64,000 nt of DNA from a virus. A program made the position numbers and the translations under genes. The notes beneath the pieces are model-generated. The model was not told where the DNA came from, made no database searches, and saw nothing but the letters and a program-made list of their open reading frames with translations. Below are positions 14,415 to 24,380 of the stretch, piece after piece. Location of the stretch: positions 32,001-96,000 of IMG/VR virus record IMGVR_UViG_3300036985_003303. One strand, given 5' to 3'. The stretch's first letter is position 1, and each line of letters opens with the position of its first letter.

Positions 14415-14505
14415 ATGTTTTAACTATAGTATGGAAAAAACTTTTCAGTTAATCAAAAATAGTTAAACATATATTGTTTACAATTGAATAAATTTGCTTA
14501 TATTA
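14415..14505 (+). promoter_or_regulatory. Scaffold/MCP promoter region with an imperfect inverted repeat and TATATTA
   Basis: ATGTTTTAACTAT (14415-14427) versus ATAGTTAAACAT (14459-14470); TTTGCT-TATATTA at 14493-14505. Confidence 0.5.
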
Positions 14506-14533
14506 TTTATAGTCAGAACTAAAACCAACAAAG

Positions 14534-15814
14534 ATGACAGAAGAAGAAAAAGCAGCTCAAGCAGCTGCACAAAACTCTGCTACAACGGTAGCAGAGGTTG
14601 ATTTTGATAACCTGGATGATTTACTTGGAATCCCATCAGCGAGTTCAGTTATTGCTCCTGCAGAGTCCAAAAATTCAGTGTTAAAATCAGATAAAGTTGA
14701 CATATCGTTCCTAGACAAAATTGGTGATGATGATACAGAATCATTAAAAGATCCGGAGATTGCTAAAGCTGCTGTGTCTGCACTTGTTGATGATGAATTT
14801 ACTGGAGGCCCTAGTGATGCAGCTGATGCAGCTGAAGAAAAGGATAAAGGTGGAAGACCGCGTTTGACAAAGGATGCAATGATTGAAGCAGCAACTAGGT
14901 TAATTGACAAAGGAGTTCTTCAACCATTTGATGACGGAAAAGCACTTACTGATTATACAGTAGATGATTTTGAAGAACTTATTCAAGCAAACATTGATTC
15001 ACAAACAAGTGAAGTTGCACAAAATGCACCGGTTCAATTGTTTCAACAGTTGCCAGAAGAAGTTCAAGCTGTTATTCATTATGCATTGAATGGCGGTCAA
15101 GACATCAAATCAGTATTTAGTCAATTAGCTAAAGCACAAGAAACATTTGATTTGGATACTGCAAATGAGCACGACCAAGAAAGTATTGCTAGACAATACT
15201 TAAATCTTTCTGGCTTTGGTTCTGTAGAAGAAGTTGAAGATGAAATCAATGTTCTTAAAGATCGCGGAGATTTGCAAAAATATGCTGAAAGGTATAAACC
15301 AAAATTGGATGCAAGACAAGCTGAGGTAATTGAAAAAAGATTGAAAGATCAACAATCAGCTCAAGTCCGTAAAAATGACATGGAAAAAAGATACCATGAT
15401 GTTGTTTACAATACTTTAAACAACAACAACTTAAATGGTATTCCATTAAATAACAAAGTTCAAACCATGTTGTACTATGGTCTTACAGACGCTACTAAGT
15501 ATCAAGACTCAAAAGGTAATGCTACAAATGCATTAGGATACTTACTAGAGCAACATCAGTTTGGAGAAAAGGCAAATCCGTCATTGGTGGCTGAAGCATT
15601 ATGGTTACTTGCTGATCCGGTTAATTACCGTAACTCAGTAAAACAACTTGGTGCTAATGTAGCAAATTCAAATACGGTAAGGGCTTTAAGAACAGAAGAA
15701 GCTTCAAGAAATACATCATCAACTGGAATCGGGGAACAAAACACAAGTGCTAGTAGAGTGTCTAACAAAAGAGAGCCAATTAAAAGGCAAGGTAAGACAC
15801 TATTTTCTAGATAA
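14534..15814 (+). CDS. Capsid scaffolding-like acidic protein
   Basis: Very acidic, low-complexity N-terminal half, helical C-terminal half; lies between portal and MCP. Confidence 0.65.
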   Translation: MTEEEKAAQAAAQNSATTVAEVDFDNLDDLLGIPSASSVIAPAESKNSVLKSDKVDISFLDKIGDDDTESLKDPEIAKAAVSALVDDEFTGGPSDAADAAEEKDKGGRPRLTKDAMIEAATRLIDKGVLQPFDDGKALTDYTVDDFEELIQANIDSQTSEVAQNAPVQLFQQLPEEVQAVIHYALNGGQDIKSVFSQLAKAQETFDLDTANEHDQESIARQYLNLSGFGSVEEVEDEINVLKDRGDLQKYAERYKPKLDARQAEVIEKRLKDQQSAQVRKNDMEKRYHDVVYNTLNNNNLNGIPLNNKVQTMLYYGLTDATKYQDSKGNATNALGYLLEQHQFGEKANPSLVAEALWLLADPVNYRNSVKQLGANVANSNTVRALRTEEASRNTSSTGIGEQNTSASRVSNKREPIKRQGKTLFSR

Positions 15815-15844
15815 TTAAATAGTAAACAATAAACAAATATAAAA

Positions 15845-17461
15845 ATGAGTACACCAGTTTTAAATAATGGGATGTTCCTTCGGGACAACTATTACACAGC
15901 AAGCTCTCATGTGGATTCTTACCACTTGATGAATTTGATGAAAGACACGCAACCAGATGACTTAGGACCAATTGAACTTTGGGCGCAAGTTAAAAAGTTG
16001 GAGATGCCTTTGTATCAAATGTCTTCTTTTAACGGAAAGAATGTTATTGAGGTAAACCACCCAAGAGGTGAATACAAGTGGTCAACACCTGTATCTGAAG
16101 AACTTCCTTTCATTATGGAAGATCTTGATCCATCAAACACTATCAAAGGCGTAGATGGTACTCCGTTCAAAATCAAATTGAACAAGCGTGTATTTGGACA
16201 TGGTGACATCATCACTTATGACAAATTCAATGGAAAAGAACTTTATATCACAGATGAAGACATCTTGGATATGGGTGACGGATATATCTATACAGTTCAA
16301 ATGCCGAACAACGATTCAGCTGCAACTTTTGATAACCGTTTCTTGACAAACAACACTTACTTCTTCCGTGTAGGTTCTGCGCGTGGTGAGTACGGTGAGC
16401 GTTACTCAGATCTTTCTATGACTCACACAACTCGTGAGTTCTACAACTATGTTGGTAATGCAGATGCACACGTTCACTATACAATTTCATCTAAAGTGAA
16501 ATTGATGGAGAAAGGTGGTATGCAAGCTGACGGTTCAATTCCTGTAACTGAAATTTGGAAAAACTTTGATACGTCAATGGATCCATCTATCAATACATTG
16601 GAAGGAATGGTTGCTGCTAAAGGACAAGGTTATGTGAAAAAAGCAATGGACAATGGAAACTTGGTTCGTTCTTTCATCACTAAGTTGGAAGCAGCTCACC
16701 TTTCCAAAATTGCTTATGATATTGAAACTTACCTTATGTGGGGTAAAGGTGGACGTATCAAGCAAGATGGTCCAGATGACCTTCGTTTGTCAGTTGGTTT
16801 GTGGAAACAATTAGACTTGTCTTACAAGCATGTTTACAACAAATCTGATTTCCGTCTTGACATCTTCCGTTCTGAGATTTTCAACTTCTACAATGGTAAA
16901 GTTGATTTCCAAGGACCAGATCCAAAACGTGAATTGATTGTTCAAACTGGAATGGGTGGTATGCGTATTATCAATGAAGCAATCAAGCGTGAGGCTTTTG
17001 CATCAGGATTGGTAATGAACGCAAAAGAATTGGAAGCAGTAAAAGGTTCAGGAATGGACTTGTCTTACGGTTTCTCTTTCACAAGCTACACAATTCCTTT
17101 CTTGGCAAATGTGAAGTTTGTTTTGAACCCTGCGTTTGACAACTTACAAAACAATGAGATTGAAAACCCAATCATTGATGGTTTCCGTTTGTCTTCTTAC
17201 TCATTTATCATCTTTGATATTACTGAGAATGGTCAAGACAATATCAAATTGTTGAAATGTGCTTGGAACAAGGATCTTGTTTGGAGATATGTAAATGGTT
17301 CTATGGACTATATGGGACGTACTCAAGGGTTCGCTTCATCTGGTAACTTCAATGGATACCAAATCTACATGACGCAAGCAATGCCTGCAATCAAAGTAGA
17401 AGATCCTACTAAAGTGTTGAAAATTGTTATGAGAAACCCAATCACGGGAGGTTCATTATAA
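15845..17461 (+). CDS. Major capsid protein
   Basis: 538 aa after the scaffold; strong codon bias (CGT/TTC/AAC); YLMWGKGG, GLWKQL, VQTGMGG motifs; followed by a terminator. Confidence 0.85.
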   Translation: MSTPVLNNGMFLRDNYYTASSHVDSYHLMNLMKDTQPDDLGPIELWAQVKKLEMPLYQMSSFNGKNVIEVNHPRGEYKWSTPVSEELPFIMEDLDPSNTIKGVDGTPFKIKLNKRVFGHGDIITYDKFNGKELYITDEDILDMGDGYIYTVQMPNNDSAATFDNRFLTNNTYFFRVGSARGEYGERYSDLSMTHTTREFYNYVGNADAHVHYTISSKVKLMEKGGMQADGSIPVTEIWKNFDTSMDPSINTLEGMVAAKGQGYVKKAMDNGNLVRSFITKLEAAHLSKIAYDIETYLMWGKGGRIKQDGPDDLRLSVGLWKQLDLSYKHVYNKSDFRLDIFRSEIFNFYNGKVDFQGPDPKRELIVQTGMGGMRIINEAIKREAFASGLVMNAKELEAVKGSGMDLSYGFSFTSYTIPFLANVKFVLNPAFDNLQNNEIENPIIDGFRLSSYSFIIFDITENGQDNIKLLKCAWNKDLVWRYVNGSMDYMGRTQGFASSGNFNGYQIYMTQAMPAIKVEDPTKVLKIVMRNPITGGSL

Positions 17462-17476
17462 TCATATTTTATTAAC

Positions 17477-17504
17477 AAGGGAGTCATTAGTTTGGCTCCC
17501 TTTT
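17477..17504 (+). terminator. Rho-independent terminator after MCP
   Basis: AAGGGAGTCA / TGGCTCCCTT stem plus TT. Confidence 0.7.
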
Positions 17505-17517
17505 AAACTTTAAAATC

Positions 17518-17775
17518 ATGTCAACAATCAAAGTTGGGGTATCAAGCCCAGATCCAGTATTAAATAGATCAGCTTATGCTGAATCAGCATTAGCTCGTAT
17601 TGCTCATATCAATGAAGCAGTTCGTTTAATGAAAGCAGATGTTGCAACTGTGGGTATTTTACCAGCACAACCTGCATTAACAGGAACAACAGTAGCTCCT
17701 TTGAGAGCAGAAGTTGAAGTCCGATTAGACACTATTGAAGCAAAATTAAATGCTCTTATAGCAGCATTATCTTAG
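17518..17775 (+). CDS. Small capsid-associated/decoration-like protein
   Basis: Directly after MCP; C-terminal heptads RLDTIEAKLNALIAALS suggest a trimeric coiled coil. Confidence 0.5.
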   Translation: MSTIKVGVSSPDPVLNRSAYAESALARIAHINEAVRLMKADVATVGILPAQPALTGTTVAPLRAEVEVRLDTIEAKLNALIAALS

Positions 17776-17786
17776 AAAGGTAAATT

Positions 17787-17816
17787 GAGGTAGCCGTTAT
17801 GCGTCTGCCTCTTTTT
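17787..17816 (+). terminator. Rho-independent terminator, followed by TATATTTG (17819-17826)
   Basis: GAGGTAG...CTGCCTC stem plus TTTTT. Confidence 0.6.
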
Positions 17817-17854
17817 ATTATATTTGTCAGTCATTAATAATAAACCAACCAAAA

Positions 17855-18847
17855 ATGAGTACAAAATTAGAACACATGGGAAAGGTAACAATTAAACCTT
17901 TCACCGATCCAAATCAAGAGAACATGGGACTTGAAAAATATAACTATGTTGTATTTCCTAACACGTTCCAAGTAGAATCTCTTGCTGCCGTTGAACAAAA
18001 TGGCAAAATGCGTTATTTGACAGGTCTTAATGAGTTTGCACCAGAGGTGAAACAGATTAAAGACTCCGCAAAAAAATCTGCTGTAATTAAAGACATCAGA
18101 GAAACAATTGCTTTACTTGAAAGAGAAAGAGCATTTAACCAAATTGATCCAGAGGATAAAGATTTCTGGAGCAAAGTTGAATTATTCAAGCCAAGTAATT
18201 CAGACATTTGGGGAAAAGTATTTTTGAAACTAGGCAATGATGATATTGTTTTAGATCCAAAAGAAAATTTGGACCATCTCATTATTGTTAAAGCTATTGA
18301 AAATGGAGGATTTTCATTAGTGGCTTCAAACTTTGAGGAAGCAAAAAGAACAAAAGCAAAATGGTATCTTGATAGACTGATAGATACTGTGGCAACAAGT
18401 GTGGGAATCAGCAAGTTGAAAAACAAAGCTGGAGCTTTACTGGAGCAATTATCTGAGGATAACCCAAGGAAATTGTTTTACATTGCTAAGAATATTGATG
18501 GAAACAGTCCGCAGTATTCAAACAAAACATTACCAGGAGTTATTTATGGTAACTTAGATAACTACATCAACGGTAAAGGGTTTGACAATAACATGAAGCG
18601 TTGTGCTACAACATTCATTGAAAGTTCAGAAATGAGCGTTGAGGATTTGAAAATTAAAGCAATTATCAAAGATGCAAGTTTCTACAAATTCATTATTGTA
18701 AAACCTGATGGAATGTTACACGAAGCTTCACAAAATGTGATGCTTGGTAGAAATGTATCTGACATCTTGGAATATTTGAAAAATCCAACTAATGAAGACA
18801 TGTTGGATCTTTTGATGGCAAAAGTAGAAGATATTTGGAGTAAATAA
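17855..18847 (+). CDS. Conserved post-MCP protein (head morphogenesis, function unknown)
   Basis: 330-aa clean ORF with late-gene codon usage; position is typical of crAss-like capsid modules. Confidence 0.7.
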   Translation: MSTKLEHMGKVTIKPFTDPNQENMGLEKYNYVVFPNTFQVESLAAVEQNGKMRYLTGLNEFAPEVKQIKDSAKKSAVIKDIRETIALLERERAFNQIDPEDKDFWSKVELFKPSNSDIWGKVFLKLGNDDIVLDPKENLDHLIIVKAIENGGFSLVASNFEEAKRTKAKWYLDRLIDTVATSVGISKLKNKAGALLEQLSEDNPRKLFYIAKNIDGNSPQYSNKTLPGVIYGNLDNYINGKGFDNNMKRCATTFIESSEMSVEDLKIKAIIKDASFYKFIIVKPDGMLHEASQNVMLGRNVSDILEYLKNPTNEDMLDLLMAKVEDIWSK

Positions 18848-18862
18848 TTAAATTTATATATC

Positions 18863-19084
18863 ATGTCAGAATCTAAAAACAAAAAAAAAGAGTTAACTCT
18901 TAAAGAACAACAAGAAGCAGATAAAGCTTATGCAAGAAAAACTATGACTTCATCTCCAAATTCTTCTTCAAATTCTAGAGCCAATAAAGTTGTTGGTAAG
19001 TATAAAAATGGCGGATCTGTTGGTAATAAAAAAGTTATGCCTAAGAAAGCTATGGGTGGTAAAATGGGTAAAAAATCTTGTTAA
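18863..19084 (+). CDS. Small basic protein
   Basis: K-rich; KYKNGG and KKAMGG motifs. Confidence 0.75.
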   Translation: MSESKNKKKELTLKEQQEADKAYARKTMTSSPNSSSNSRANKVVGKYKNGGSVGNKKVMPKKAMGGKMGKKSC

Positions 19085-19233
19085 TGTCAAAACAAGGTTT
19101 ATATTCAAACATCAATGCTAAAAGAAAAAGAATAGCATCAGGTTCCGGGGAGTCAATGAGAAAACCCGGAACTAAAGGTGCTCCAACTAAAGCAAGTTTT
19201 ATTAAGTCTGCAAAGACTGCAAAAAAGAAATAG
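19084..19233 (+). CDS. Small basic protein, 49 aa (not in track)
   Basis: MSKQGLYSNINAKRKRIASGSGESMRKPGTKGAPTKASFIKSAKTAKKK; TAATG overlap; resembles a widespread phage GLY.NI.AKRKRI family. Confidence 0.8.
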   Translation: MSKQGLYSNINAKRKRIASGSGESMRKPGTKGAPTKASFIKSAKTAKKK

Positions 19234-19235
19234 TC

Positions 19236-19358
19236 ATGGCTGTAAAGAAAGTTAAAAAAGAAAAATCAGACTGTGCAGTTAAGGTTAAAAAATCTTTTCA
19301 AGCAGGAATGATGATTGGTCGCAACATGAAAAAACCAATTACTAATAAGAAAAAGTAA
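19236..19358 (+). CDS. Small basic protein, 40 aa (not in track)
   Basis: MAVKKVKKEKSDCAVKVKKSFQAGMMIGRNMKKPITNKKK; fills the gap exactly, TAATG coupling. Confidence 0.7.
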   Translation: MAVKKVKKEKSDCAVKVKKSFQAGMMIGRNMKKPITNKKK

Positions 19359-19542
19359 TGGCAAAGACGGCAATTAATTATTGGGGACTAGCAGATGAAT
19401 ATGCTACCTCAAAACATAAAATGGAAAAAGGTGATGATATTTCTAAATATGAAAGATATGAAGAAGTAAAAGAAGCTTATGAAGCCGGGTTTTTGAAAGC
19501 TGTGGAATTATTAAAAAGTGAAGACTAATGGCAAAGACAGCA
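19356..19542 (+). repeat. 17-bp direct repeat TAATGGCAAAGAC(G/A)GCA flanking the 56-aa ORF
   Basis: 19356-19372 versus 19526-19542, 16/17 identical. Confidence 0.8.
19358..19528 (+). CDS. Small net-acidic protein, 56 aa (not in track)
   Basis: MAKTAINYWGLADEYATSKHKMEKGDDISKYERYEEVKEAYEAGFLKAVELLKSED; TAATG overlaps at both ends. Confidence 0.7.
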   Translation: MAKTAINYWGLADEYATSKHKMEKGDDISKYERYEEVKEAYEAGFLKAVELLKSED

Positions 19543-19800
19543 GCTTGGACAAGAAAAGAAGGCAAGGATCCTAAAGGTGGATTAAATGCTAAAGGTGTTG
19601 CTTCATATAGAAAAGCAAATCCAGGAAGTAAATTGCAAACTGCAGTTACTACTAAACCTTCTAAGCTTAAAGCTGGAAGTAAAGATGCTAAACGAAGAAA
19701 AAGTTTTTGTGCTAGAATGTCTGGAATGCCAGGTCCTGCTAAAAAACCAAATGGAGAACCTACAAGAAAAACTCTTGCATTAAGGAAGTGGAATTGTTAA
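19528..19800 (+). CDS. Basic conserved phage protein (DUF6321-like)
   Basis: AWTRKEGKDPKGGLNAKG...RRKSFCARMSG...ALRKWNC. Confidence 0.8.
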   Translation: MAKTAAWTRKEGKDPKGGLNAKGVASYRKANPGSKLQTAVTTKPSKLKAGSKDAKRRKSFCARMSGMPGPAKKPNGEPTRKTLALRKWNC

Positions 19801-19811
19801 TACAATAGATC

Positions 19812-19979
19812 ATGGCAATAAAGAAAGGAATGGGTTTTAAAGCAGCCCAAAAAGGTATAGCAAAAAAGCAAGGTGTTTCTATGGAAGCAGCCGGTGCTAT
19901 TTTGGCATCCGCTGCAAGAAAAGCATCTCCCGCGGCCAAACGCAAGAACCCAAATCTTAAAAAAGTTAAAGGGAAATGA
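19812..19979 (+). CDS. Small basic protein, 55 aa (not in track)
   Basis: MAIKKGMGFKAAQKGIAKKQGVSMEAAGAILASAARKASPAAKRKNPNLKKVKGK; ATGA overlap with the next gene. Confidence 0.8.
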   Translation: MAIKKGMGFKAAQKGIAKKQGVSMEAAGAILASAARKASPAAKRKNPNLKKVKGK

Positions 19980-20905
19980 GCAAGTTAAGACCATTTGCAT
20001 TAAGAGATAAACTTGGAAATATAGTTTCTGGAAGTTTAGTTTATAGTACAACAAAACCTAAAAATGGTGATTTTTTTCTTGTTGTAGAAGGTGTTGAAAG
20101 AAATGAAATCAACCCTGGTAATTATTCAAGTATTGTCCGTCAGTATTACGGTAGTGCAACTACATCTGAAAATTTTGGAGATAAAGCAAAAGCTTTTATT
20201 TCCAGCTATGGATATGCTCCAAGTAATGTTCTATTATCTGATTCAATTTGTTCAGATGATGTAGATGGTCCTATTTATGCAGATGTAACTAACATCGGTC
20301 AAACTCCTTCATCACTTAATGAATTTTTAGGTGCATTTATGTCTGGAGGATTAGCTGGCTATCCACACACAGGTACATTAGGAATTGCTGCTTGGGCTAG
20401 TCATGCTACAACAACTACTAAAGGTGCATTGTTTTTGATTAATATGCCGCACATTGGTATTTCAATAGATAATCAAGTAGGTAGGATCAGACGAAGAGGA
20501 AAAGCAACTAATGGTGCTGATAATACATGTGGCGCAGTTGCTACAGCAATTGCTTGGGTAATGGCCAATGCCGTAGCACCAGTTGCAACAAATTTTCCAA
20601 ATGACTATCAGAACTATGTTTTGTGTAATATTCTTTTTCCTTTTAAAGCAGCTATCACAGCTTTACCAACTTATGGTGCAAGAATGATATATGCTACTGA
20701 AAAAATTAGAGTTGCAGGTGATGCATTTTTAATTGGAGCAACTGGAATTTCTGCAAATGTTCCAGCAGGTATTGATGTATTTTATTGTTCAGGAACATTT
20801 ATAAATACAGATGATACTTACAGTGCATACATTAATGTAACTTCATTTAAAAAGTTTAATGGTACTTGGAGTGACTTGACAACTGCTTTCTTAAAGACTT
20901 TATAA
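19976..20905 (+). CDS. LCIB/LCIC-like (theta-type) carbonic-anhydrase-family protein
   Basis: SICSDD (C92), F.SGGLAGYP..G..G..A...H, MPHIGIS...VG.I.RRG (H159), TCGA (C185), and a C-terminal GTFINTD; motif order matches the LCIB_C_CA family. Confidence 0.8.
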   Translation: MSKLRPFALRDKLGNIVSGSLVYSTTKPKNGDFFLVVEGVERNEINPGNYSSIVRQYYGSATTSENFGDKAKAFISSYGYAPSNVLLSDSICSDDVDGPIYADVTNIGQTPSSLNEFLGAFMSGGLAGYPHTGTLGIAAWASHATTTTKGALFLINMPHIGISIDNQVGRIRRRGKATNGADNTCGAVATAIAWVMANAVAPVATNFPNDYQNYVLCNILFPFKAAITALPTYGARMIYATEKIRVAGDAFLIGATGISANVPAGIDVFYCSGTFINTDDTYSAYINVTSFKKFNGTWSDLTTAFLKTL

Positions 20906-20914
20906 TAGGAACAC

Positions 20915-21616
20915 ATGACAAATGATACTATTCAAATAAAAGTCAAACAGCGAATTAATAAATTGGCTAGTAATGACTATGACAACATTATGCCTTGGCA
21001 AATTGTTGAAGCTTTTAATAAAGCACAAGTAACTTGGTGCAGAAGAAACTTGATGGGAACTAATATGACTAAGACTGGCGATGAAGCTAGTAAAAGACGT
21101 ATTGATGATTTACAAGTTTTGCTTTCAGACAAACCATTAGCAATGGTCAAAAAGGATTTGTATTTTCAATCTCCAACTTTACCTGCAGACTATTTTGAGT
21201 GGAAAAGACTTTCCAGCAAATCAAAAAAAGATTGTTGTGATAAAAGACAAATGGTAATTTATCTTGCAGAAGAAGCAAACGTAGATGAACTTTTGAGGGA
21301 TCATAATAAAAAACCAAGTTTTGAATGGGCTGAAACTTTTGCTACAGTACTAGGAAATAAAATTAAAGTTTACACAAACAATGATTTTGAATTAGAGAGC
21401 ACAGTTTTGACTTATTACAGACAACCAAGAAGAATACAAATTCCAGGAACATCGGATCCATATACAGGACTTGTTTCAACTGTAAATGTTGAATGTGAAT
21501 TTAAAGATGACTTAGTGGAATTATTCATTGATGAATGTGTAAAAATTCTAGCAGGAGATCTTGAAGATGTTACTGCAAATCAAATTGCAGATAATTCAGT
21601 AGAAACTAATAATTAA
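20915..21616 (+). CDS. Tail ring / head-tail connector protein
   Basis: EAFNKAQ..W, E.SKRRIDDLQVL, KPSFEWAETF, YYRQP motifs typical of crAss-like ring proteins. Confidence 0.65.
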   Translation: MTNDTIQIKVKQRINKLASNDYDNIMPWQIVEAFNKAQVTWCRRNLMGTNMTKTGDEASKRRIDDLQVLLSDKPLAMVKKDLYFQSPTLPADYFEWKRLSSKSKKDCCDKRQMVIYLAEEANVDELLRDHNKKPSFEWAETFATVLGNKIKVYTNNDFELESTVLTYYRQPRRIQIPGTSDPYTGLVSTVNVECEFKDDLVELFIDECVKILAGDLEDVTANQIADNSVETNN

Positions 21617-21623
21617 GAATAAG

Positions 21624-22085
21624 ATGAACTCACCACAAAGAGGTCTATTAAAAAGACCAACACAACAAGCAACAAGTTCTACTTACACAAAACCATCTGG
21701 TAATCATTGTGTAGAGGAAACAACAGTTTGCGTTTGTGAATTAATGAATGCATCTATTTCATTTCATAAACTACATTTAAAAGTAGCAGGTCCTGGTGCA
21801 CACGCTATGCATGTTGCATTAGGCCCTTTATATGAAGGATTACCTGATCTTATAGATACTATTACAGAAGCATACCAAGGAGCAGCTGAAAGAATTTTAG
21901 TTCTTCCAGACTGTTGTCCAAGAAGTCTTAATTCTGTAGAAGAAGGTATTGTTTACATCAGAGAAATTTATGATATGATTTGTGCTTTACAAGACATTAT
22001 GTGTTTCTCAGAAATCAGCAATGAACTTGACAATGTAAAAAGATTACTAGGTTCAACAAAGTACAAACTTTTATTTTTAAAATAA
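21624..22085 (+). CDS. Dps/ferritin-like four-helix-bundle protein (DUF5856-like)
   Basis: FHKLHL...AHAMHVALGPLYEGLPDLIDTITEAYQG...EISNELDNVKRLLGSTKYKLLFLK. Confidence 0.7.
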   Translation: MNSPQRGLLKRPTQQATSSTYTKPSGNHCVEETTVCVCELMNASISFHKLHLKVAGPGAHAMHVALGPLYEGLPDLIDTITEAYQGAAERILVLPDCCPRSLNSVEEGIVYIREIYDMICALQDIMCFSEISNELDNVKRLLGSTKYKLLFLK

Positions 22086-22116
22086 TTTGCACTAAGTGTT
22101 GCACAATTGGATTATT

Positions 22117-22145
22117 TTTGCTATATTAAATATATTGTTTATTAA
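22117..22145 (+). promoter_or_regulatory. Putative late promoter (TTTGC-TATATTA plus conserved leader)
   Basis: 22122-22145 matches 1944-1967 at 22/24 positions. Confidence 0.55.
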
Positions 22146-22159
22146 CTAAAAAAAGAAAA

Positions 22160-23746
22160 ATGAGTTATTTTAATCATGCTTACCGCAAATCATTTGTCGG
22201 AACAAAAGCAACCCAAGCAAATGTACCTGGTGTATCCAATGCGGTGAATAACGGATTATTGCTTGACGCAGGTGTACCAACATCAGCTTTAGCAAATGCT
22301 GTTGCACCAAATTCATTAGGAGTTGGTACTTATGGATTTTTTAATCCAAACACTTATGTATCTGTAAACAACGCATCTCCGGAAGTAGTTGCAGGAAAAC
22401 CATTGGTTTTTGCTGCTGCATCTTTGTTTACAAATGATAAGATTGGACCTTTCCACGGAGGGTACAAAGAGTCTAACAAATCAAAGATGATCAATCCAAG
22501 ATTTGTTCACAAATTTTCTAAAATGACAGGTGCTGCTCCAGAGCAATCTATTTGGCATTTAGGAAATACAAACTGGAACTCTGATTCAATTGATACTTTA
22601 GGTTTCCTTGTAGCAGGTGTTGGTTATACCGTTGGTATTTATACTAATGTTGCATTAGTAGGTGGTACAGGTGTTGGTGCTTTTGCTACAGTTCAAGTCA
22701 ATGGTGCTGGTAATGTTGTTTCTATTGTAATTACAGAACCGGGACAAGGATACACAGTTGGTGATGTTTTAACATTGCCTGCTTCAGTTCCATTTGTTCC
22801 AGGTGCTCCTGCTTCAGTTCCAGTTGCAACAATCAAATACAACGCAGTAGGAAGTGCTCCTTGTAAATTTAATTTTGTATGTGGAGAAACATACAATCTT
22901 CGTGTTGACTTATGGGGTTCACCCGTATTGCGTTACTTGAACCATGACTTGTACAAAACTTTCGCAGCTTATACAGGTTGTTGTCCAACAGGTGCAATTG
23001 TACCAGGAAATGTAGATTCTACATTGGTAATGATCAACTGGGCTAACCAAATCGTAACTGATGTATGGTTGCAGTACTTTGTTCGCCCAATCGTTTATAC
23101 TCAAACAGGTGTTCCATTGTTTGCTACAGCTGCTGAAGCAATTGCTGCAGGTTTCCCTGGAACTAATGTATGGTCAACTTATGTATCTCCAGGATACATT
23201 GCTGGTGCATTGGCTGGTATTCGTTTGATTGGAGCTTACATTGAAACTAAATTTGGTAACTGTTCATTCCAAAACAGTGATTTCTATGAAAAAGAAATCA
23301 TTCAGATGAACTTATCATTGACAGATTTGACTGGTGATCCATGTGACTTCTCTGCACTTTGTGCTACTAAAGAATATGCAGGATTTACTGGACAAGGTTA
23401 TGGTGAAACTGTATTGCGTGATGTGATTCTTGATGAGTCATACTTACAAAATCATTTCTCTGATGATGTTCGTATCCGTGAGATCACTCAAGGAGATCAG
23501 TATTTCACTGCGGTTAACCGTAATGCGTTGTACACGCGTTATGTAATCCAACACAGTGTTCCTCGTTACAACAACCCTAGTGGTGTTTATGATGATGATC
23601 AGTATGCATTGAATATCTATGTTACTGTTACTACAGCAACAGCATTTGAAACATTCATGGCAACATGGTTGGGTGCGGCTGCAGTTGGTGCAGTTACAAC
23701 ATTGAATACTTTTGGTCATACTGCTTACACACCAGCAGTTCTTTAA
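22160..23746 (+). CDS. Abundant virion structural protein (auxiliary capsid or fibre-base candidate)
   Basis: Has its own promoter and a strong terminator; MCP-like codon bias; contains a GxGYT..G...GG.G.GA.A.V beta module. Confidence 0.6.
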   Translation: MSYFNHAYRKSFVGTKATQANVPGVSNAVNNGLLLDAGVPTSALANAVAPNSLGVGTYGFFNPNTYVSVNNASPEVVAGKPLVFAAASLFTNDKIGPFHGGYKESNKSKMINPRFVHKFSKMTGAAPEQSIWHLGNTNWNSDSIDTLGFLVAGVGYTVGIYTNVALVGGTGVGAFATVQVNGAGNVVSIVITEPGQGYTVGDVLTLPASVPFVPGAPASVPVATIKYNAVGSAPCKFNFVCGETYNLRVDLWGSPVLRYLNHDLYKTFAAYTGCCPTGAIVPGNVDSTLVMINWANQIVTDVWLQYFVRPIVYTQTGVPLFATAAEAIAAGFPGTNVWSTYVSPGYIAGALAGIRLIGAYIETKFGNCSFQNSDFYEKEIIQMNLSLTDLTGDPCDFSALCATKEYAGFTGQGYGETVLRDVILDESYLQNHFSDDVRIREITQGDQYFTAVNRNALYTRYVIQHSVPRYNNPSGVYDDDQYALNIYVTVTTATAFETFMATWLGAAAVGAVTTLNTFGHTAYTPAVL

Positions 23747-23766
23747 GACCGGAGTTATATCTTCCT

Positions 23767-23808
23767 AAAATGGAGAATAGAGTCTTTCTCTGTTCTCCAT
23801 TTTTTTTA
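23767..23808 (+). terminator. Rho-independent terminator
   Basis: AAAATGGAGAATAGAG / CTCTGTTCTCCATTTT 16-bp stem plus T run. Confidence 0.85.
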
Positions 23809-23819
23809 AATGAAATCTT

Positions 23820-24380
23820 ATGGCAACAAATTCATTAAGTTTAAATATTCCAAACATTATGACAGACTGTGTTCTTCGCATAGAAGACACAAGCGTGTAT
23901 GATTTACTCATGCCTTATGTTTGCCCTACTGTCCAAGTATTAGTACCTGGATATAGAGATTGCATTACTTTCAATGACACAACTTTTCCACCAATTTATA
24001 AAGGATTTATTCTTAATCTCACGGCTTGTGATTTAAAAATACAAACTGAATGTTGTGGAACTGAGTTCCATTCATTACCCGATGGGATTTATGTCATCAA
24101 GTATGCACTATCTCCGCATGATAAAATGTATGTTGAGTACAATCATTTGCGTGTTACAGCTTTAAGAAAACAACTGAAAGAGGAATGGTGCAAACTTAAA
24201 TTGAGTGCATGTGAACCAATTCCAGAAACTAAGAATAAATTTATATCTTTGATGGAGATTACTGGTTACATAGATGCAGCTCAAGCAAAAGCTGAATACT
24301 GTTTAGACCATGATCAGGCAATGGTTTTGTATAACTATGCCAAAAAACTGTTAGATAATTATTCATGTAAACTTTGCTAA
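23820..24380 (+). CDS. Putative tail hub / structural protein
   Basis: LRIEDTSVY, LPDGIYVIKY, YNHLRVT motifs; structural context. Confidence 0.55.
   Translation: MATNSLSLNIPNIMTDCVLRIEDTSVYDLLMPYVCPTVQVLVPGYRDCITFNDTTFPPIYKGFILNLTACDLKIQTECCGTEFHSLPDGIYVIKYALSPHDKMYVEYNHLRVTALRKQLKEEWCKLKLSACEPIPETKNKFISLMEITGYIDAAQAKAEYCLDHDQAMVLYNYAKKLLDNYSCKLC

Follow-up and report, generated by a model that had tools for sequence, protein, structure and literature searches.

A gene of the LCIB carbonic anhydrase family forms an optional cassette between head and tail genes of a crAss-like phage

The stretch of viral DNA analysed here (the window, 64,000 nucleotides (nt) in length) covers bases 32001-96000 of the IMG/VR record IMGVR_UViG_3300036985_003303, the 117,346-bp and 98% complete record of an uncultured crAss-like phage, and its + strand carries at positions 19976-20905 a 309-residue open reading frame (ORF) encoding a protein of the LCIB-type (theta/beta-fold) carbonic anhydrases (CAs). 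LCIB-type CAs have been described in the CO2-concentrating mechanisms of algae and in a scattering of bacteria, but are not known from phages. Comparison with related contigs demonstrated that this gene is an accessory cassette that is gained and lost with its translational coupling preserved, rather than a fixed member of the operon in which it lies. As a tentative reading, to which we give somewhat less than an even chance, we propose that its product is a dispensable, late-made, homodimeric and zinc-dependent CA carried on the virion.

The assignment of the protein to the LCIB family is secure. It matched the Pfam family PF18599 (LCIB_C_CA; curated cut-off, 25 bits) with 94.5 bits and an E value of 7e-27 over profile positions 1-220 of 223, with a domain envelope of residues 61-292 (20156-20851), and the match was recovered again when the whole virus record was scanned. 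PF18599 was the sole Pfam match reported, the canonical beta-CA family Pro_CA giving no match at E up to 10. When phmmer was run against all chains of the Protein Data Bank (PDB), solely LCIB-family entries were matched, with E values of 2.6e-19 for 6kfs, 8e-13 for PtLCIB4 of Phaeodactylum tricornutum (5b5y), ~7e-13 for 9vzj and 9w05, 3e-5 for Chlamydomonas LCIC and 3e-4 for Chlamydomonas LCIB. Supportively, a Foldseek search with an AlphaFold2 monomer model, which was built from 22 homologues and reached a predicted local distance difference test score (pLDDT) of 76 and a predicted template modelling score of 0.73 with low confidence in the active-site loop 90-128, matched 6kfs with an E value of 1e-12 and template modelling (TM) scores of 0.63 by query and 0.77 by target, and PtLCIB4 (5b5y) with TM scores of 0.63 and 0.80, respectively. 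Chlamydomonas LCIB and LCIC (5k5w, 5b5x), which belong to the same family and share the zinc site, were matched more weakly (TM 0.49/0.65). Canonical beta-CAs (E. coli Can/CynT2, H. influenzae and pea) have a related alpha/beta fold with a Cys2His zinc site, an Asp-Arg pair and a dimer unit, and ordinary beta-CAs ranked far lower in the Foldseek search (E 0.04-0.3, TM 0.3-0.45). No PHROGs family matched the protein, and a fold search of BFVD returned nothing significant, its top entry being a giant-virus beta-CA at an E value of 0.56. Both the profile search and the structural comparison thus bear out the preliminary description of this DNA, in which the gene had been proposed to be LCIB/theta-class CA-like from the letters and translations.

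The residues expected of such an enzyme were then located on the gene. The motifs SICSDD, GGLAGYP, MPHIGIS, RRG and TCGA all occur in the 309-residue protein, and the matching columns in the PDB alignments were CSD, the His of 'SHAT', the His of 'PHIG', the first Arg of 'RRG' and the Cys of 'CGA'. Cys92 (codon tgt, 20249-20251), His159 (codon cac, 20450-20452) and Cys185 (codon tgt, 20528-20530) align, in this order, with the zinc ligands of 6kfs, 9vzj and PtLCIB4 and are the predicted first, second and third ligands. The triplet Cys92-Ser93-Asp94 (20249-20257), aligned to the CSD of PtLCIB4 and 6kfs, also supplies the predicted catalytic Asp; His143 (20402-20404), counted on the PDB-hit alignment, is the equivalent of PtLCIB4 His88; and Arg173 (20492-20494) belongs to the RRG motif, as judged from sequence and alignment. 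PtLCIB4, 6kfs and 9vzj, all of the PF18599 family, have their Cys-x-Asp, His, His, Arg and Cys positions in register with those of the phage protein at 22-26% identity in structural alignments, and in the phage protein and PtLCIB4 alike the first Cys is followed by Ser. The importance of PtLCIB4 His88, and of His162/161 and Arg194/193 in Chlamydomonas LCIB/LCIC, has been reported (PMC5876011). The Cys/His/Cys triad noticed earlier was accordingly upheld by profile, fold and residue conservation, while the claim that the D following the CxD is unusual was not, as several cellular homologues likewise read CSDD.

The phage proteins form a branch of their own within the family. A large protein database held 336 relatives, many of them on contigs of 105-128 kb and with PF18599 as the sole annotation among the matches listed, and 142 IMG/VR contigs encode a relative; the contigs of the phage branch come from crAss-like, T4-like and jumbo phages. 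An exhaustive HMMER search returned 25 representatives (50%-identity clusters) at E up to 1e-30, the 23 at <=1e-37 constituting the phage branch, below which the ranking showed a gap, then tandem-domain proteins and then single-domain cellular proteins. The tandem-domain proteins are probably algal, since one of them has a PAP_fibrillin domain, and they score far above the phage ones on the Pfam model (each domain of the algal tandem proteins reaches roughly 150-220 bits, versus ~95 bits for the phage protein). The nearest cellular relatives among species-representative prokaryote genomes, searched with a single motif pattern, were mostly from Bacteroidota metagenome-assembled genomes and shared 23-32% identity. 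In a maximum likelihood (ML) tree from a quick search, which included 47 phage rows (<=75% identity) and 24 cellular or unassigned rows, the phage rows were monophyletic with a Shimodaira-Hasegawa-like approximate likelihood ratio (SH-aLRT) support of 100 and a stem of 1.22, and the protein studied here fell in a starred subclade of 24 rows. A tblastn search of 50,697 GenBank phage records with this protein and three divergent clade members gave zero matches, and a full-text literature search found neither LCIB in phages nor a carbonic anhydrase in crAss-like phages, in agreement with the earlier remark that LCIB was not known as a phage gene. LCIB-type genes also occur as tandem pairs on large phage contigs, up to 217 kb in length (L050:9602-11668, L052, L083:9749-11810, L087:9752-11814 and L088), and the two copies of a pair, upstream and downstream, belong to different tree subclades. 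Such pairs in some jumbo-phage relatives recall the Chlamydomonas LCIB-LCIC pair, and the phage studied here has a single copy.

Conservation within this clade bears directly on catalysis. Cys92, Asp94, His159, Arg173 and Cys185 are all kept in 204 of 209 unique phage-clade sequences, and residue by residue the counts among the 209 are 205 for Cys92, 207 for Asp94, 208 for His143, 207 for His159, 208 for Arg173 and 207 for Cys185; the same catalytic set is kept in the cellular homologues aligned. CO2-hydrating activity of the protein is likely, because Asp94, His143 and Arg173, none of which is a metal ligand, match the ligands in conservation. In the enzyme proposed, each subunit would hold at the dimer interface an active site made of Cys92, His159, Cys185 and a water, together with Asp94, His143 and Arg173, and would interconvert CO2 and bicarbonate. 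Of the five exceptions to the five-residue set, three are fragments; the others are P0064, with Ser in place of Cys92, and P0145, an open frame of 549 residues in which the zinc ligands are replaced by Pro, Ala and Asn. P0145 lies on a long branch of 0.6 and has an insert of ~210 residues of repeated beta-rich sequence ahead of the last helix, and its sister P0131 retains the zinc ligands. Moreover, the phage clade is marked by an insertion of 7-9 residues that ends in N-I-G-Q just past the first zinc ligand (loop N106-I-G-Q-x-P111, 20291-20308), in which N106, G108 and Q109 are invariant in an alignment of phage-clade sequences (A1). The three solved structures lack this insertion, and so do 23 of the 24 cellular or unassigned homologues aligned; in the remaining one (L162) the insertion at this place is unrelated. 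This loop and an extra 45-residue N-terminal module set the phage protein apart from PtLCIB4, 6kfs and 9vzj.

Two other explanations turn on these residues. The LCIB fold and its zinc might serve without catalysis, as a stable dimer used for building or binding (e.g. as an optional capsid or tail decoration), to which we assign a small probability. This would suit P0145, which has lost the Cys, His and Cys yet keeps an open 549-residue frame, as well as the invariant phage-specific loop that lies in the modelled dimer interface and the N-terminal parts that differ across the clade; algal LCIB and LCIC are moreover inactive in vitro (PMC5876011), and a structural barrier has been proposed as the role of LCIB-LCIC in algae. 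However, Asp94, His143 and Arg173 are not ligands and are each kept in 207-208 of 209 sequences, which is hard to fit with a zinc of structural use only, and P0145 is a single sequence on its long branch. The second explanation, which we consider highly improbable, is that the protein has this fold but hydrolyses another small substrate with its zinc (e.g. COS or CS2), its pocket having been reshaped by the phage-specific loop. Hydrolases of COS and CS2 with the beta-CA fold exist, the clade-specific NIGQ insertion is placed beside the active-site Cys loop, and near-identical sequence is present in sediment metagenomes; but LCIB proteins and ordinary beta-CAs outrank any such enzyme in the sequence and fold matches, and every residue of CO2 hydration is retained.

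A two-copy model, calculated from a 22-row alignment, supports a homodimer with the active site at the interface. Its score was 0.85 versus 0.00 for the best control; among proteins of solved structure, 20 of 30 homo-pairs and 1 of 23 single chains attained this mark. The runs had at least 76% of contacts in common with a partner pLDDT of at least 82; the pass may mirror the likeness of the protein to LCIB and beta-CA dimers that are already solved. The residues at the modelled interface are 93-95, 101-108 (the NIGQ loop), 118-126, 131-136, 173-177 and the N-terminal 6-41.

The cassette nature of the gene was determined by comparing public contigs with the window over positions 14500-24000. 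Two of them join 19975 directly to 20915 and so omit 939 nt (19976-20914), and the four letters ATGA fit both sides of the junction. In joining contigs and relatives, the left edge is the ATGA at 19976-19979, where the stop of a preceding 55-residue ORF overlaps the LCIB start, and the right edge is the ATGA at 20915-20918, at the start of the next gene, 10 nt after the LCIB stop. The coupling by ATGA to the preceding small basic ORF, as proposed earlier, is thus present in the letters. One of the joining contigs (355 nt) is from a seawater DNA run and has 0 and 3 mismatches in its two flanks; the other (6,136 nt) is from a marine RNA library, which is no proof of transcription, as DNA may have been present and the contigs come without strand or level. 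Reciprocally, the LCIB gene was in place in one sediment run and one freshwater-sediment run. Absence of the gene was read from the joining contigs and not from the bins of zero depth over it in X20 and X8 by themselves, and habitat labels of runs with small word shares were left out of account. The seven closest LCIB-less IMG/VR contigs, at 77-94% DNA identity, all broke exactly at 19979/20915 in BLASTN alignments (7 of 7), and the sole LCIB-positive relative in this set, at 78% identity, aligned without interruption. Because its closest relatives skip it so precisely, the gene is unnecessary for building the particle.

The distribution of the gene in IMG/VR was patchy as well. Loci were gathered around relatives of the conserved 330-residue gene (17855-18847, + strand) that forms the upstream bound of the variable slot by synteny and has relatives on 190 IMG/VR stretches, and 68 of these loci hold both this gene and the 233-residue tail-barrel gene (20915-21616, + strand) on the other side. 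Only one of the 68, a contig already found through LCIB, has the LCIB gene, and the two flanking genes lie anywhere from -1 nt (abutting) to 4,327 nt apart. The order capsid gene, 330-residue gene, slot and tail-barrel gene was found in 27 of 80 LCIB-centred loci. The slot (18848-20914) is hypervariable, and the array of small, mostly basic ORFs that it contains upstream of the LCIB gene (18863-19979, + strand) is consequently optional too. The GC content of the LCIB gene is 0.36, the same as in its flanks, which gives no compositional sign of recent foreign origin and, together with the monophyly and long stem of the phage clade, points to long residence in phages. That the gene product is a core virion protein of crAss-like phages was considered and rejected: the gene is missing from 67 of the 68 loci with both flanks and from seven relatives at 77-94% DNA identity, and the protein matched no phicrAss001 virion protein, LCIB proteins being its best fold matches and no PHROG matching it. 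The gene, which encodes a host-like enzyme, is patchy and is dispensable for the particle, has the operational marks of an auxiliary metabolic gene, a class that is silent on the site of action. Of the earlier suggestion that an oligomeric enzyme had been reused as a virion part, an essential part is excluded by the cassette and its patchiness, while an optional add-on is compatible with both.

The surroundings of the cassette suggest a late gene. Upstream, a crAss-type major capsid protein of 538 residues is encoded at 15845-17461 (+ strand; PF23898 Crass_capsid, 96.2 bits; phrog_11589). Downstream, the 233-residue product (phrog_29507) was identified by fold search alone: its model (pLDDT 82) matched three chains (D/E/F) of 7qoj, the phicrAss001 tail barrel, with an E value of 6e-12 and TM scores of 0.72-0.74, and additionally matched portal-tail proteins of other podoviruses, while PDB sequence and profile searches with this and the 330-residue neighbour found no match. 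The naming of a tail ring gene downstream was therefore reasonable, the protein being ring/adaptor-like. No terminator-like hairpin was found on the + strand between 14.6 and 23.7 kb in a hairpin scan, and the first long-stem one downstream, with a 16-bp stem and a T run at 23767-23803 after a 528-residue gene and with no other of its kind on this strand in 14-24.5 kb, probably ends the transcription unit of the LCIB gene; the other + strand candidates, a palindromic one at 14575-14596 inside the 14534 ORF and one at 24277-24294, were weaker. A sigma-70 promoter scan stayed at or under the shuffled expectation and was uninformative. Placement of the gene within a virion structural operon, as the preliminary description had it, holds in that the genes from capsid to tail barrel are co-oriented and free of terminators, but the weight once put on position does not, since the gene is a precise cassette and is distant from the virion genes in sister lineages. 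Inserted into the slot that separates the head genes from the first tail-barrel gene and coupled by ATGA at both sides, the cassette would be expressed late, alongside the virion proteins, because of this coupled position, and its product would be dispensable for the particle.

How such a protein might reach the virion is suggested by its N-terminus. The first ~45 residues (19976-20113, + strand), with three beta strands in the structure model (residues 5-10, 22-24 and 32-35), form a module that we name 'KAY' after its conserved start, and that begins every LCIB gene of the crAss-like subclade. In sister crAss-like contigs, a hidden Markov model (HMM) of KAY found the same module at the head of proteins of 77-414 residues, the remainder of which consists of a poly-Thr linker and, in some cases, a beta-rich domain behind it. 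At least 359 small KAY-headed proteins of 77-247 residues occur in a large database, with 87-100% identity over the first 46 residues of the module among the 120 proteins listed, and one of the KAY-headed proteins listed has an adhesin-type Lcl_C domain (PF07603); no signal peptide was seen in the KAY-headed proteins inspected. Proteins of this family consist of the module, then 'ECC', long poly-Thr/Ser/Pro linkers and various beta-rich ends, and are encoded for example at L053:6803-7483, L070:1283-2527, L071:7030-7770 and L079:7447-7680. A conserved handle with interchangeable payloads would be the pattern expected of proteins docked on a common partner, and poly-Thr linkers would suit exposed proteins.

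Similar joinings were found elsewhere in the phage clade. In L030, the leader of the LCIB protein is common to three adjacent fibre-like genes, which lie between a capsid gene (phrog_138) and a head-tail adaptor gene, and in L057 and L090 the LCIB domain follows a beta-rich N-terminal module. A 776-residue protein encloses the LCIB domain (residues ~124-384) in L043:8062-11962 and L047:8082-11962 and is preceded by a protein of 509-516 residues that has 'DPLMLGR(V/I)RG' in its N-terminal part and 'THTHAYPG' in its C-terminal part; these motifs recall tail spike tips, for which PHROGs and Pfam gave no confirmation. The L047 block also includes capsid-like and scaffold-like genes. It is on account of the module swapping, the fusions and the coupling within the late operon that we favour carriage on the virion: the LCIB protein would most likely ride the particle as optional equipment, docked through its 45-residue N-terminal module, and would alter CO2, bicarbonate and pH outside the cell or at the host surface. 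In a wider form, which we regard as unlikely on balance, small conserved N-terminal docking modules would hang interchangeable payloads on the particles of crAss-like and other large aquatic phages, an active LCIB-type CA being a recurrent payload that alters CO2, bicarbonate and pH at the host surface or in the surrounding matrix and that is gained and lost by habitat as a precise cassette.

Several observations weigh against carriage on the virion. No cultured phage in the GenBank records searched has an LCIB relative, nor does the KAY module match any of these 50,697 records; the module HMM found no second KAY carrier in this genome; and in four sister crAss-like records with a Crass_capsid match, the LCIB gene lies 50-66 kb from the capsid gene, amid small genes. 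The same site is present in algal LCIB and LCIC, yet these were inactive in vitro (PMC5876011), and in the dimer model residues 6-41 pack on the partner subunit, so the N-terminal module may be a dimer arm and not a free anchor. Dispensability, furthermore, suits an auxiliary metabolic gene equally well.

The last points lead to the alternative of a soluble enzyme that works inside the infected cell, where it would aid bicarbonate supply or pH buffering for the host carboxylations of nucleotide, fatty-acid and anaplerotic metabolism, with the module as a dimerisation arm only. We consider this the main rival, though clearly less likely than not. An intact and strongly conserved catalytic set, a patchy and dispensable gene as auxiliary genes are, its location far from virion genes in sister crAss-like lineages and the N-terminal residues within the modelled dimer interface are all consistent with it, and so is a report that viromes contain auxiliary CA genes of the alpha, beta and gamma classes (bioRxiv 10.64898/2026.01.21.700432). 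The nearest cellular homologues from the single-motif-pattern search, in addition, are mostly from Bacteroidota, the host phylum of cultured crAss-like phages. Against an action in the cell, expression coupled inside a late virion operon would come late for precursor supply; the enzyme domain is repeatedly joined to fibre-like or poly-Thr modules of display type and is embedded in the 776-residue protein of L043 and L047; and the P0145 lineage retains the protein without zinc ligands.

Carriage on the virion has a parallel in role in T4 Hoc, a non-essential decoration that is made late and joins the finished particle via a small binding module, and that is not an enzyme. The likeness would be one of role only, with no relation in sequence or fold, and would concern the putative attachment of the LCIB protein to the virion. 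Relative to the LCIB type of PtLCIB4, 6kfs and 9vzj, which is tied to the CO2-concentrating mechanism, the phage gene is a single optional gene, and Chlamydomonas LCIB and LCIC, for their part, act around the pyrenoid (PMC5876011). The CA genes described from viromes also lie on viral contigs and were likewise proposed to affect carbon or pH (bioRxiv 10.64898/2026.01.21.700432), but they are of other classes and cluster with bacterial enzymes, whereas the phage LCIB proteins form a deep, phage-only branch with a swappable N-terminal module and, here, a place in the virion operon. What the present analysis adds is the placement in a crAss-like phage, the precise edges of the cassette together with pairs of strains that have or lack LCIB, the hypervariable slot, the DUF6321 and Dps-like neighbours described below, the size and conservation of the KAY family and the clade-specific NIGQ loop. 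If the enzyme is active, phages would bring a further path into the carbon and pH chemistry of sediments and lakes, and if it is borne on the virion, particle-associated enzymes would include a new kind; the strain pairs with and without LCIB provide natural controls for studying the benefit of the gene.

Two neighbouring genes travel with LCIB genes of the KAY type. In the window, a DUF6321 gene for a basic protein of 90 residues (19528-19800, + strand; PF19846, 81.9 bits) precedes the cassette, and a Dps/ferritin-like DUF5856 gene (21624-22085, + strand; PF19174, 42.7 bits; phrog_858) follows the tail-barrel gene. Both were found within ~3 kb in most KAY-type LCIB loci with enough flank, and neither was found within 10 kb in any of ~28 loci with other LCIB architectures (0 of ~28). 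DUF6321 also occurs in 546 GenBank phage records, mostly of cyanophages and pelagiphages, none of which has an LCIB gene, and its link with LCIB therefore reflects placement in an accessory region that the two share and is not evidence for a complex. A full-text literature search found no published mention of DUF6321 and nothing linking it to phages. In the pelagiphage Eistla, DUF6321 lies between the scaffold and capsid genes, and in the cyanophage P-TIM68 it is the C-terminal part of a 427-residue protein encoded between the tail-fibre-like and large terminase genes. In one sister lineage, a gene for a GIY-YIG-type homing endonuclease (L053:11345-11968; phrog_314, phrog_5123) directly follows the DUF6321 gene. 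Elsewhere in the window, a 93-residue ORF at 1577-1858 resembles, by eye, a GroES-type co-chaperonin, and its homologues lie near the LCIB cassette in sister crAss-like lineages (e.g. L046, L068-L070 and L074-L081).

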